A stretch of 64,000 nt of DNA from Schmidtea polychroa (Eukaryota), in NCBI GenBank assembly GCA_044892525.1, contig CM097886.1, positions 188,468,312 through 188,532,311 on the forward strand, in the 5' to 3' direction. Under the pieces are notes generated by a model. It ran no database searches. It saw nothing but the letters and a program-made list of their open reading frames with translations, and was not told the origin of the DNA. Both the position numbers and the translations under genes were made by a program. Positions 29,049 to 58,413 of the stretch are shown one piece after another (position 1 is the stretch's first letter; each line of letters begins with the position of its first letter).

Positions 29049-29344
29049 AATTGAAACTTGAGGCGGAGGGGTTATGTCTCTTTATTTCTTTATCGATATT
29101 TTTATTGTTTGTATTATTTTGGTATCCGCTCTCCTGGACTCTTGTGAGCAGAGTTATCGCTCTCTGGTCCATATCTGCCGCTCTCCTCATCTTCCCATTC
29201 AGGGTTTGCTCCACATATCGAGCTGTGTTCGAGTATCTCTGTATCAGCTGCGTCCGGATCCGGTTCCAGCATTGTAAAAGATCATCTCCACCTTTCGTCC
29301 TTCCTGAATTAAAAAATACAATTAACTTTTCGCTGTCACGGACA
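29049..29344 (-). pseudogene. ORF1 N-terminal fragment homologous to the ORFs at 54672-55052 and 57586-58320
   Basis: Manual translation EKLIVFFNSGRTKGGDDLLQCWNRIRTQLIQRYSNTARYVEQ aligns without gaps to EYLLTFISEKNQNNDAEIYEHWKNVANIIYQNDPRTHDYVNQ; not in the ORF track because it lacks an early start codon. Confidence 0.7.
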
Positions 29345-29424
29345 ATTTCTGGCCAGTGCTATTGAATGTTATATAGAAGTAATTCTACTAAGCTCTGGTT
29401 AACGGCGGGAGTAACTATGACTCT
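29345..29424 (+). rRNA. 28S rRNA fragment immediately upstream of the R2 site
   Basis: ATTTCTGGCCAGTGC...AACGGCGGGAGTAACTATGACTCT. Confidence 0.92.
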
Positions 29425-30684
29425 ATGTTTAACTATGTTTATTTTAACTCGCATGGGAAGGTTAAAGGTAGCATCGGTGCCTCCTATGTTGAGAAGTTGC
29501 TTGAAATTACCAAAGCACCTCTTAAGCCGCAACAGCGTCTGGAGATACTTCGTACTTTCTTGATCCCTAGTATTATGCATCGCGCAATATTGGGGGAGTC
29601 GAGGTTAGGGGAATTGCGGGAACTGGATAAAAGAACGAGAAGGTTTGTGCGGGAGTGGCTAAAGTTGCCAAGTGACACAACGGCAGCATTTATAAACAGT
29701 AAATGTGGTGATGGCGGTCTTGGAATACCATCAATTAGGGCAGAAGTCCAATACGGGATCGTAGAACGACTGGAGAGCTTGGTAGACTCAGGTGATTGGA
29801 GTGTTGTGAATCTGCTACAACATCCTGCTATTTTGAAGAGACTTAATAAGTGTCGGAAGCCCATAAAGGTTAACGGTGTAGAGAGGAAGACCAAGAACGA
29901 CTACTACGAAGCGATGAAGCAATGGCTGTATGAGAGTAACGATGGTTATGGTTTAAATGGATCTGATGAAGTTCCCTTTATTCATAACTGGATAAAGGAT
30001 GGGACAAGACTACTAGATGGTAAAACATTTATTGGCTGCGTCAGAGTGAGGGGTAACCTGTTCCAAACAAAAACAAGGACAGGGAGAGGAGGAAGAAGGA
30101 TCGGAAACGAAATGATGTGTGATAAGGGCTGTGACGGGCAACCTGAAAGTCTGAATCACATATCACAGAGTTGTCCGTGTGTTAAGAACATGAGATCCGT
30201 AAGACATGACAACGTTACAAACTACGCCATGCAGAGCTTAAAGAAGAAAGGATGGGTTGGATTTGTTGAGCCAATAGTCAAGTTTCGAACTACCTGCTTA
30301 AAACCAGATCTGGTATGTGTTCGGGGAACAAAAGCGATTGTCCTCGACACTCAAATTGTGACAGACCATGCGAACCTCCGAGAGAGACATGAAGAGAAGT
30401 GTAAAAAATATAACGTGGAAGAGGTTCAAGAGTGGTGCAAGGCGAGAGGAGCAACATCGGTGGAGTTTGGCTCAATTACTTTTAACTGGCGAGGAAACAT
30501 GTATAAAGAAACGTGGGAAAGGCTGAAAAGCATGGGTATAAGCAAAGCAGATGGAAAGATCATGTCGGTCAAGGTACTTAGTTGGACTGCAAAGATGTTC
30601 TACACATACCGGAATTGTGCGGGGAATTGGGCACGAGAGGGTGGAAACACAAGGCAAACTAGGAAAAAGAAACTTCGAACGTGA
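29425..30684 (+). CDS. R2 ORF C-terminal part (RT thumb, CCHC, restriction-like endonuclease)
   Basis: APLKPQQRLEIL, GGLGIP, CDKGC..ESLNHISQSC, RHD, KPDLV..LDTQIV. Confidence 0.95.
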   Translation: MFNYVYFNSHGKVKGSIGASYVEKLLEITKAPLKPQQRLEILRTFLIPSIMHRAILGESRLGELRELDKRTRRFVREWLKLPSDTTAAFINSKCGDGGLGIPSIRAEVQYGIVERLESLVDSGDWSVVNLLQHPAILKRLNKCRKPIKVNGVERKTKNDYYEAMKQWLYESNDGYGLNGSDEVPFIHNWIKDGTRLLDGKTFIGCVRVRGNLFQTKTRTGRGGRRIGNEMMCDKGCDGQPESLNHISQSCPCVKNMRSVRHDNVTNYAMQSLKKKGWVGFVEPIVKFRTTCLKPDLVCVRGTKAIVLDTQIVTDHANLRERHEEKCKKYNVEEVQEWCKARGATSVEFGSITFNWRGNMYKETWERLKSMGISKADGKIMSVKVLSWTAKMFYTYRNCAGNWAREGGNTRQTRKKKLRT

Positions 30685-31100
30685 AATCTGGCAGGGTCGG
30701 AGGGGATGGCCATTGAATCAGATAATAAAAAGATATCTGGAGTTGTATCTATGGGGTGCAAGCTCCTGAAAGCACTTTAGCTATACCAAATGGTGCTGTA
30801 TGGTGAGGATACAACGAGGAAGGAAAAGGAATAAAAAGTCTGTGCCAATCTGCTGTTCCAAAGGCTGGATCCTACAGCTATAGAGTAGACTCACTCCTGC
30901 CAAGAGGATGGTGACTAGGAAAATATTTTGGGACCAGAGTCTACTTGCGGAAAAGAGAGGACGTGAAGTACAAGAATGAAGATTAGAAGATGGACTATTT
31001 GAAGAATGAAGAGTACTTGGATTGGAAGGATAGCGCTGATCTCTTGGAAGCAGCACTATTAAAGTAATAATCTGACTGCTTTAATAGTGTTTAATATCCC

Positions 31101-31134
<34 letters not shown>
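29425..31134 (+). mobile_element. R2 retrotransposon copy A, 5'-truncated, poly(A)-tailed, at the canonical 28S site
   Basis: Follows ...ATGACTCT (CTTAAGG deleted); ends in an A run of about 31 nt (31104-31134) joined to TAGCCAAATG. Confidence 0.96.
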
Positions 31135-31165
<31 letters not shown>

Positions 31166-31249
31166 ATGCATGAATGGATTAACGAGATTCCTACTGTCCC
31201 TATCTACTATCTAGCGAAACTACAGCCAAGGGAACGGGCTTGGAAATTA

Positions 31250-55753: not shown

Positions 55754-56185
55754 TTACTTGTGTAAGGAACAAATAATGATATGACCACAAGGCAGATATA
55801 GAATAGAAACTTCTCGAATTTGACATATACAACATGTAATAAACTGTTTTCTGACTTCATTCAGTAAATTATGTATTTTAATACCAAGTTTATATGCATT
55901 AAGAAGGAAGATTTCAATAAGCTCGCGATAATTTCCGAACCTGAAATCCATACATATCCAGAAAACCTTAAGCATGTTAATTTCTGTATGGTTAATATTA
56001 TTTATAGATATTATACAGCTGGTTAATTTCAACATCGATATACTGAAGCCGAACTTATCAAATAGATTTTGAATTACTTGATGTTTGAAAGATTTATTTA
56101 TTTTGGCCAGGAATATATAATATTCATCATTTATTGTTAGAAGTTTATCTATTATTAAAAAGGAATGATCCCAATCAATAGACAA
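55754..56185 (-). CDS. ORF ending in a truncated IAP-like RING finger (duplicate at 62062-62493)
   Basis: CCICQIREVSILYLPCGHIIIC resembles the C3HC4 IAP-type RING; final CxxC missing. Confidence 0.6.
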   Translation of the reverse strand: MSIDWDHSFLIIDKLLTINDEYYIFLAKINKSFKHQVIQNLFDKFGFSISMLKLTSCIISINNINHTEINMLKVFWICMDFRFGNYRELIEIFLLNAYKLGIKIHNLLNEVRKQFITCCICQIREVSILYLPCGHIIICSLHK

Positions 56186-56777
56186 TTCTTGTACCTTATT
56201 TAAAATAATTAAATTACTAAATAATTATAACATCAAACCTGTGGATCGTTTGAAGACATCGATGAATATTTGTGAATGTTGTAAATGAAGTTATTAGACC
56301 TATTTATATATATGTTTCATAATAATAAAAGTAATAATAATGATATTTTTACTTTATTAAAACACTAATAATAATAATAATAATTATAATAATAATAATA
56401 ATAATACCATTGCGAGTTGTTGAGCGTGACAGTACCCTTGTGAGCATTACCCATAGGGGGACAAAATATTTTGTCGGATAGACTNNNNNNNNNNNNNNNN
56501 NNNNNNNNNNNNNNNNNNNNNNNNNNNNNNNNNNNNNNNNNNNNNNNNNNNNNNNNNNNNNNNNNNNNNNNNNNNNNNNNNNNNNNNNNNNNNNNNNNNN
56601 NNNNNNNNNNNNTAATAACAAGATATATGGCTCATTCGAAAGGTCTTGGATTGAGCTTTAAAATGAGCTATCGATGAATAATTTTCGTTGGCGAGAACTT
56701 TGAAAAAATTAAAAATAAAATAATAATATTTTTTAAAAATAATAATAAAAATAATAATATTTTTTTAAAATAATAAT

Positions 56778-57095
56778 ATGACCTTGATGACTCATCGCGA
56801 TGACTCACATGACCTTGAGAATGACCTTGGGTGAGTCATGAGACCTTGAACATGACCTTGATGAGTCACAGGATGACTCAGATGACCTTGAAAATGACCT
56901 TGATGAGTCATGGTCTTTGTTTAAATGACCTTGAAAATTTTTGATGAGTCATAGTATGAGTCATATGCCCTTGAGAATGACCTTGGATGAGTCATGCGAC
57001 CTTGAAAATGACCTTGATGAGTCACAGGATGACTCAGATGACCTTGAAAATGACCTTGATGAGTCATGGTCTTTGTTTAAATGACCTTGAAAATT
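56778..57095. repeat. Complex tandem array of ATGACCTTG and TGA[GC]TCA motifs (duplicate at 63086-63403)
   Basis: About 14 ATGACCTT-like motifs with a higher-order period of roughly 155 bp. Confidence 0.88.
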
Positions 57096-57600
57096 TTTTT
57101 AAAAAATTTAAAATTAGATATCTTATTACAAGCGATTATTTCGGATGACCTTTTAGATACTTCAAATTACGATCCCTCTCATCCTTTATATTCCAGGCGA
57201 CTTGACTCAGTTATAGGCAAGTTTAAGGATGAGAGTAAAGGGTTAGGATATAGTGAATGGGTTTTCTTACGTCCTAAATGTTACAGCCTATTAGGAAATA
57301 AGTCAACAATGAGGGCTAAGGGCGTAAAATTACCGGGGACCGACATCAAACATCAATCTTATTTAGACTGCTATAACAACAACAAAGTCATGTCGGTTCC
57401 TCAAACTAGAATAGGAACCCGGAATCATCAGCTATTTACTTTTAAAAACTCAAAAATAGCTTTAAATAATCACGACGATAAGAGAGCTTGGGTAGGGAAA
57501 AACTCAAGTTTTGCATATGGACATTATAGAGGGGTTGATGTCTTAGATGGTAGTGGTAATATCGTCATGCCTGAAACGGATCCTGTCATTCGAGATCAAC
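57081..57600 (+). pseudogene. C-terminal fragment of a Polinton/adintovirus-type protein-primed family B DNA polymerase (duplicate at 63389-63908)
   Basis: DTSNY..HPLYS, GKFKDE, LRPKCYS, RAKGV, DDKR, AYGHY. Confidence 0.85.
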
Positions 57601-58336
57601 AATTTTCATCAGTATCATGGGGTGTGAACTTATATTTATATTCAAACAAATTATTTCATTAAAATCTTTAATTTTATTTTCATTTTTGTTAAAATTATTT
57701 TTTATAAAATCATTTAATTTATTATTGTTAAAAACGTGGTTTTCGTCCTTTTTTTCAAAATCCTTATCTTTATAATTAAAATCATTTTTTTTATTTTCAA
57801 AATAATTATTCATAAACTTATTCATAAAAATATTTAGATCATGATTATTAAAAATTTCGGGCTTTTCAGATAGTTTTTCAAAATATTTAGGTGTATATTT
57901 TTTATTTTCACAGTTTTTATAAAAAACTCTATCGTTTTTATAGGTTTTTTCTAAAAAATTCTTTTTTTCACAATTTTTATAATTTTTATCTTCTTTATAG
58001 TTATTAATATATCTATCATTTATTAAATTAGAAAAATTTTCCTTATTAAACCCAGAATTTTTAATATTATTTATATAGTAATTTTGACCATGAATTACCG
58101 TTATTTTAGATCTTTCAGTCAATTTGGAGATAATAGATATGGCATTCATATGCCTTTCTCTGTCGAAGCAACGAGCACCTCGGGATATCAGTTGGTTAAC
58201 ATAATCATGGGTTCTCGGATCATTCTGATAGATAATATTCGCAACATTCTTCCAGTGTTCATAAATCTCAGCATCATTATTCTGATTCTTTTCTGAAATA
58301 AATGTTAATAGATATTCCAATGAAATAAACTCTTTT

Positions 58337-58413
58337 ATTTCTGCCCAGTGCTATTGAATGTTATATAGAAGTAATTCTACTAAGCTCTGGTTAACGGCGG
58401 GAGTAACTATGAC
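58337..58413 (+). rRNA. 28S fragment upstream of the R2 site
   Basis: ATTTCTGCCCAGTGC...AACGGCGGGAGTAACTATGAC. Confidence 0.93.

Follow-up and report, generated by a model that had tools for sequence, protein, structure and literature searches.

Antisense junctions at a single 28S position

A 64,000-nucleotide (nt) stretch of Schmidtea polychroa DNA (assembly GCA_044892525.1, contig CM097886.1, positions 188,468,312 to 188,532,311; the whole stretch is termed the window) contains pieces of 28S ribosomal DNA (rDNA) interspersed with fragments of R2-type and LIN-type elements. Pieces of 28S starting at ^ATTTCTG, a position termed site B, adjoin the 5′ ends of two related open reading frames (ORF1s) on the minus strand, and these junctions are likely (probability of about 0.85) to represent site-specific antisense insertions by elements of the R5/LIN lineage, which belongs to the NeSL clade. 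Comparison with published sequences suggests that site B is likely a known landing site viewed from the opposite end and not a new one. The elements that made the junctions are probably new families of a known kind. A second antisense 28S site in the window is termed site A.

The motif ATTTCTG[CG]CCAG was observed three times in the window, at 29345 (with one mismatch), 55069 and 58337; the mean in shuffled sequence was 0.18, and none of 100 shuffles reached three occurrences. At each of these positions a 28S piece begins, immediately preceded by non-28S DNA. The first-pass annotation had reported that 28S starts at exactly this motif three times, each time preceded by the 5′ end of a minus-strand ORF1, and both statements were confirmed for all three positions (Table 1). 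The piece starting at 29345 is 80 nt long and extends to GACTCT, with seven conserved bases (CTTAAGG) missing there, such that site B lies 87 nt upstream of the R2 site (80 nt present plus the 7 missing bases), in agreement with the annotated distance. The corresponding distance in an intact, unrelated 28S from a metagenome locus (L053) is 86 nt.

The blocks 54330-55093 and 57598-58361 show 14 differences over 764 positions and lie within a larger tandem duplication, in which two pairs of blocks (55090-56484 and 61398-62792; 56613-57692 and 62921-64000) are 100% identical. The junctions at 55069 and 58337, which had been flagged as possible duplicates, are a single junction copied by this duplication, and therefore there are only two independent junctions (29345 and 55069/58337). 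By rough arithmetic, the chance of two junctions falling on the same nucleotide is about 1 in 87 if breaks are uniform between site B and the R2 site, and that of both falling within 1 nt of the previously published site described below is about 0.001.

Table 1. Coordinates of 28S pieces and element fragments in the window.
Positions	Strand	Feature
27342..27394	+	Decayed 28S piece (81%), starts 11 nt inside site B, abuts minus-strand group-A ORF1 fragment
28580..28695	+	28S piece from R2 site, abuts interior of minus-strand ORF1-like fragment
29050..29344	-	ORF1 5′ end, 98 amino acids (aa) open to junction, no start codon or reverse transcriptase (RT) of its own; deletion-joined to other fragments
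29345..29424	+	28S piece from ^ATTTCTG (site B), ends 7 nt before R2 site
29425..31134	+	Sense R2-type element, 5′-truncated, poly(A), ends at R2 site
31135..31676	+	28S, R2 site to site A
31677..33661	-	Group-A element, internally deleted, both ends at site A, apparently blunt; ORF1 start LIN9_SM-like
33662..33703	+	Decayed 28S immediately downstream of site A
36339..42245	-	B1, group-B element; ORF1 short by about 2.2 kb at 5′ end
37782-41030	-	B1 ORF2, intact
42246..44765	+	Sense R2-type element, 5′-truncated, ends at R2 site
44766..45307	+	28S, R2 site to site A
45308..48413	-	Group-A element, Ulp1 (C48) protease domain and RT, interrupted at site A
48414..55068	-	B2, group-B LIN-type element with its 5′ end at site B and its 3′ end missing
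48464-51652	-	B2 ORF2 with RT, CCHC, restriction-like endonuclease (RLE)-type motif, after in-frame TGA
about 51656-55068	-	B2 ORF1, broken by stops and frameshifts
55069..55093	+	25-nt 28S piece from site B, shortened by deletion within tandem duplication
57598..58336	-	Duplicate of B2 5′ end, 98.2% to 54330-55068
58337..58413	+	28S piece from site B (duplicate junction)
58414..59150	+	R2-type RT fragment; junction with 28S 10 nt short of R2 site

Similarity of the two ORF1 5′ ends

The ORF1 at 29050-29343 was observed to match that at 57601-58335, the duplicate of the B2 5′ end, with a BLASTP E value of 0.002 (14 of 69 positions identical). The score was reached by 9 of 5000 shuffles when the whole ORF was used and by 1 of 5000 for the first 100 aa. 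In a six-frame control, from which 157 of 4831 tiles were set aside because they overlapped the query or the two 5′ copies, none of the remaining 4674 tiles reached the score of 58 (best, 38). The best non-self tiles for the 29050 query were all B2 5′ copies. No similarity between the ORF1 starts of the 29050 family and B2 was found at the DNA level. Significant homology between these two ORFs had been set as a test of the initial interpretation and was detected at a modest level; the proposal of two independent families, drawn from the distant similarity of the ORF1s, was upheld.

The start of the aligned domain, measured from the junction, differs by two codons between the two ORF1s. Both copies appear from their sequences to be full-length at the 5′ end rather than random truncations, because the homologous domain occurs in nearly the same register from the junction. 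Neither ORF1 has an ATG near the junction, and both start right at the junction. Two HMMER matches to the ORF1 N terminus were rejected, being repeat proteins with scores summed over short spurious matches. Single-sequence AlphaFold models of the ORF1s were uninformative, one having a predicted local distance difference test (pLDDT) score of 52 with five helices and the other a pLDDT of 82 with one long helix.

Correspondence with a published insertion site

The LIN9_SM, LIN24_SM and LIN26_SM families of Schmidtea mediterranea are reported to target 28S and to cluster with R5, with 96% bootstrap support, in the NeSL clade (Kojima & Jurka 2015, PMC4640811). In S6 Fig of that paper, LIN24_SM and LIN26_SM copies have a poly(T) end followed by antisense 28S at GGGCAGAAATC^ACG/ACA. 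Of the LIN24_SM rows, 14 of 17 end at that site, as do 8 of 30 LIN26_SM rows (one accession appears twice); LIN26_SM is loosely targeted, with 22 of 30 rows outside 28S. Read on the sense strand, the published boundary is GT^GATTTCTG, which is 1 base from the ^ATTTCTG of the window. A G precedes ATTTCTG in the intact target, both in the reference of that paper and in L053. As the intact target has this G and the two ends are 1 base apart, joining of both ends would imply a 1-bp target deletion, in agreement with the target deletions reported for all described NeSL elements (PMC3636483).

The site-B insertions match the LIN24_SM/LIN26_SM target class in 28S position and antisense orientation, with minus-strand ORFs and 5′ junctions 1 base from the published 3′ boundary. 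As in those families, the insertions share one 28S position (the 3′ boundary being 1 base off) that is common to two families, and the 3′ end of B1 resembles that of LIN26_SM, loosely and by eye. The two data sets differ in that only 3′ boundaries are given in the figure whereas the window provides 5′ ends; furthermore, several bases of the window 28S between site B and the R2 site differ, by eye, from the published reference, which points to a different dugesiid species or a different type of rDNA. No 5′ boundaries of LIN24_SM or LIN26_SM are shown in S6 Fig, and no junction sequences are given in the passages of PMC5035012 and PMC7650587 that mention LIN families. A literature search found no further paper on site B among those listed; Repbase entries and the original description of R5 may hold 5′ junctions. 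The claim of a second antisense target site thus stood in that the site is real and used by two independent families, but the site itself had already been published for LIN24_SM and LIN26_SM. As the site was known, the gain is small: the window shows the LIN24/LIN26 site in use in a type of 28S unlike the published reference and contributes the 5′ junctions missing from the published figure, with the 1-bp deletion that these imply.

Alternatively, the junctions might be products of assembly, or breakpoints left by deletions, within a decayed cluster of rDNA and repeats rather than the ends of insertions. This region has numerous deletions and N gaps as well as blocks duplicated at 100% identity, and no 3′ junction is present in the window. 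Against this, two unrelated DNA sequences end at the same 28S base, at the starts of homologous ORF1s, and the junction is 1 base from a published insertion site; breakpoints or assembly products were considered very improbable.

R5 of Girardia tigrina is a 28S-specific planarian element of the NeSL clade, reportedly with two ORFs (said to have been described by Burke, Singh and Eickbush in 2003) and with an insertion point said to precede the R2 site by about 8 bp. Identity of site B with the R5 site was rejected, as site B is 87 nt upstream of the R2 site compared with the approximately 8 bp reported for R5.

Protein domains and assignment of the elements

The minus-strand elements were observed to encode a long ORF1 with zinc fingers and, beyond an in-frame TGA, an ORF2 in which RT, CCHC and a PD..D.K endonuclease motif were identified. 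RVT_1 and zf-RVT profile matches were obtained in the ORF2s, and RPD..LDIK motifs are present in the ORF2s of B1 and B2. The arrangement is that of the NeSL clade, with RT followed by a CCHC finger and then a restriction-like (PD..D.K) endonuclease. On the minus strand, an in-frame TGA stands ahead of all four LIN-type ORF2s of both groups (41031, 48271, 51653 and 61379), none of which has an ATG start. Database protein searches returned no named R5 or LIN protein.

Group A consists of 45304-48270, 59156-61378 and fragments, and carries a Ulp1/C48 protease domain; group B consists of 37785-41030 and 48467-51652, which are 44% identical to each other and 27-32% identical to group A. A Peptidase_C48 match was obtained for 2/2 group-A and 0/2 group-B ORF2s. 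The Ulp1-like region of group B is alignable and decayed, without the catalytic-looking WLIHW and DCG motifs that are kept whole or in part by group A and two database relatives. A Ulp1-like protease upstream of RT is reported for nematode NeSL and Utopia-1_TSP (PMC4640811).

B2 is collinear from ORF2 to the junction at 55069, across the stops and frameshifts of ORF1, and therefore one group-B family is present at site B. B1 had been proposed to fit the same site on the basis of its end at 42245. This end was rejected as support for site B because about 2.2 kb of ORF1 is missing (1212 nt in B1 versus 3413 nt in B2), such that 42245 is not a 5′ terminus and is uninformative. The R2 piece adjoining 42245 likewise begins deep within its ORF. 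It is possible that one deletion removed the site-B end, the spacer and the 5′ part of R2, an event indistinguishable from any other deletion. The piece at 29050-29344 has no RT itself. A 38-nt block that recurs at 28369-28406 connects it with a copy of a group-A RT fragment, and therefore the weak ORF1 match is what ties it to group B. Attribution of the site to the group-B lineage was thus upheld for the 48414-55068 element only.

The 3′ end of B1 reads AAATAAAATTT followed by poly(T) and is LIN26_SM-like by eye. An N gap (37290-37616) lies within the B1 3′ untranslated region (UTR), across which we infer the link between B1 and the 3′ end at approximately 36339. In the flank of this end (36300-36338), a tRNA T-arm-like motif, GGGTTCAAATCCC, was noted on the minus strand; ARAGORN detected no tRNA in the window.

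Site B may alternatively be common to several LIN lineages, including both groups A and B, with group B being only loosely specific. Consistent with this, the group-A ORF1 fragment at 27342 meets decayed 28S at a point 11 nt inside site B, the site is common to two S. mediterranea families with 22 of 30 LIN26_SM rows outside 28S (PMC4640811), and the 3′ end of B1 lies outside 28S. However, the junction at 27342 is old and off-register and could be a deletion, and both of the remaining group-A ends flanked by 28S lie at site A. Shared use by both groups is somewhat doubtful on this evidence; 27342 is possibly an old fourth junction.

Several observations weigh against site-specific antisense insertion by R5/LIN-lineage elements. 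The number of independent site-B junctions is only two, and no 3′ junction with the upstream 28S side of site B is present in the 64-kb window, as had been stated at the outset. The region around the junctions is heavily rearranged and has N gaps. The similarity of the ORF1s is weak (20% over 69 aa), and no homologues of the ORF1 N terminus were found elsewhere by two word-based searches or in the ESM Atlas. The comparison with LIN24_SM and LIN26_SM is confined to the site and about 60 nt of printed 3′ ends. Finally, the only group-B 3′ end in the window (~36339) has a non-28S flank, and the RT-less 29050-29344 piece has group-A RT fragments as its neighbours.

Likely mode of insertion

Site-specific insertion at site B would most likely have occurred by target-primed reverse transcription, as established for R2 (PMC13580325), using the endonuclease and RT of the element itself. 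The restriction-like endonuclease would nick the 28S sense strand after ...CAATGT, and the nicked strand would then prime reverse transcription on the poly(U) 3′ tail of the element. Joining of the second strand at ^ATTTCTG would cost the target one base (G). Subsequent insertions of R2 (87 nt downstream) and of LIN9-type elements (542 nt beyond the R2 site), deletions and the 6.3-kb tandem duplication likely left the region as a pile of fragments from which the 3′ junctions are gone. We infer the nick positions from the junctions, and also the 1-bp deletion and the order of events. The window shows R2, LIN9-type and LIN24/26-type elements in competition within about 630 nt of one 28S gene.

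The R2-type elements and the second antisense site

The R2 target is 28S AAGG^TAGC (PMC7650587). The site-B elements resemble R2 in having an RLE-type endonuclease and a 28S target, and three R2-type fragments occur at or next to the R2 site in the window. R2 differs in being a sense, single-ORF element of another site and lineage, whereas the site-B elements are antisense, have two ORFs and lie 87 nt away; identity between the R2-type and LIN ORF2s was 24-30% in matched stretches. Sense insertion at AAGG^TAGC was found only for the plus-strand fragments ending at 31134 and 44765, both of which have TAGCC at the end.

Site A is, as judged from its sequence, the published LIN9_SM site: 63 of 63 flanking bases match the S. 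mediterranea 28S reference of PMC4640811 by eye, a match that makes a dugesiid planarian the likely host. The elements there (junctions at 31676 and 45307) resemble LIN9_SM in being antisense 28S insertions with an ORF1 starting at the 5′ junction, and differ from those at site B in using another site, 542 nt past the R2 site. As TTTCTG is present at both sites, site B was considered as a sense-orientation copy of the site-A motif; this idea was dismissed, the ORF1s and the published families at site B both being antisense. At 45308, a group-A element cut inside its endonuclease domain meets 28S exactly at site A, without a 3′ UTR.

The flank of site A bears on another explanation of the site-B junctions, in which the short 28S stretch belongs to the 5′ end of the elements as an inherited, target-derived leader that is carried in the RNA and anneals to the target. 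The common junction would then stem from one ancestral capture or from RNA-guided joining, not from repeated nicking of the second strand; such a leader is compatible with use of site B. At site A (33662-33703), the flanking 28S is decayed and reads in frame with ORF1. Of the 12 LIN9_SM 5′ rows of PMC4640811, most have common changes from the 28S reference, and R2 RNA retains upstream rRNA sequence that primes second-strand synthesis (PMC13580325). At site B, however, the 28S at 29345 and 58337 is essentially intact (98.7% mutual identity over 77 nt) and continues to the R2 site like real rDNA; moreover, the ORF1s have no DNA similarity, which makes it unexpected that a leader captured once would have remained identical. 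An inherited leader is unlikely.

Upstream of the site-A element, 35006-35200 forms a mosaic in which short 28S words alternate in orientation. Words from the interval between site B and the R2 site cover 67 of 164 nt, compared with a mean of 3.6 in 748 tiles, and the mosaic includes an antisense copy of the site-A flank that agrees with the decayed copy at 33662 in 24 of 27 bases. This mosaic resembles a scar left by template switching or a leader mimicking the target. Imperfect tandem repeats at 34526-35032 have a unit resembling antisense 28S just past site A (19 to 23 of 29 bases). As a result of an exact 51-nt duplication (33440-33490 and 33701-33751), the decayed 28S is flanked on either side by ORF1 sequence, and therefore one open frame (33056-33805) runs through 28S-derived codons.

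Translation start

Antisense 28S elements with neither a 5′ UTR nor a start codon of their own might take translation initiation from outside, with an ATG supplied by 28S at site A and by a spliced leader at site B; we consider this improbable. At site A, antisense 28S provides an ATG in frame with ORF1 of the window element (33662-33703), and the same in-frame antisense-28S ATG was seen by eye in the LIN9_SM rows of PMC4640811. At site B, antisense 28S gives an in-frame stop (TAG) and not an ATG. In all three junction types (29345, 55069/58337 and 27342), ORF1 is in frame directly after the antisense-28S TAG^CAC. Flatworm spliced leaders are reported to end in AUG (PMC12582326), and a leader trans-spliced onto the AG of TAG^CAC would provide an initiator methionine. 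Counting against a borrowed start, the frame match has a probability of about 1 in 9 by chance (1 in 3 for each additional junction), and CAATAG, the acceptor, departs from the UUNYAG motif given for parasitic flatworms (PMC12582326). If a start were borrowed, target choice would be limited by translation as well as by the endonuclease. It would also explain expression of an element antisense to rRNA transcription, a question that was not found to be addressed in those parts of the literature that were covered.

Metagenome and sequencing-run searches

Searches beyond the window used a metagenome collection, from which the best 80 of 209 confirmed stretches of an ORF2 alignment gave 80 loci. 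A 34-nt 28S pattern gave no matches in this collection. The site motif was present in 1/80 loci, this being L053, an unrelated 28S with the site intact, and an LIN element at site B was detected in 0/80. Rfam analysis of 13 of the 80 loci identified rRNA in L053 only. Both site B and the R2 site are intact in L053; the 28S meets a long sense ORF at 3284, approximately 27 nt beyond site A, and an antisense RT element joins further upstream (about 4870). Among the sequencing-run rows listed, the B2 stretch or part of it occurred in 8 of 16, from four studies and all assembled contigs, and these were not used as evidence; no RNA run with the stretch was among them.

Other features of the window

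The 6.3-kb tandem unit contains duplicated fragments (55757-57597 and 62065-63905) with a RING finger (PF13920, below cut-off) and a polymerase-B-like frame, which had no Pfam match and which we take to be Polinton-like. Elsewhere in the window, a pogo/Tigger-type DDE_1 transposase (1128-2654), a long terminal repeat-type pol with RT, RNase H and integrase (16138-19589) and a further group-B RT fragment (20240-20788) were observed.

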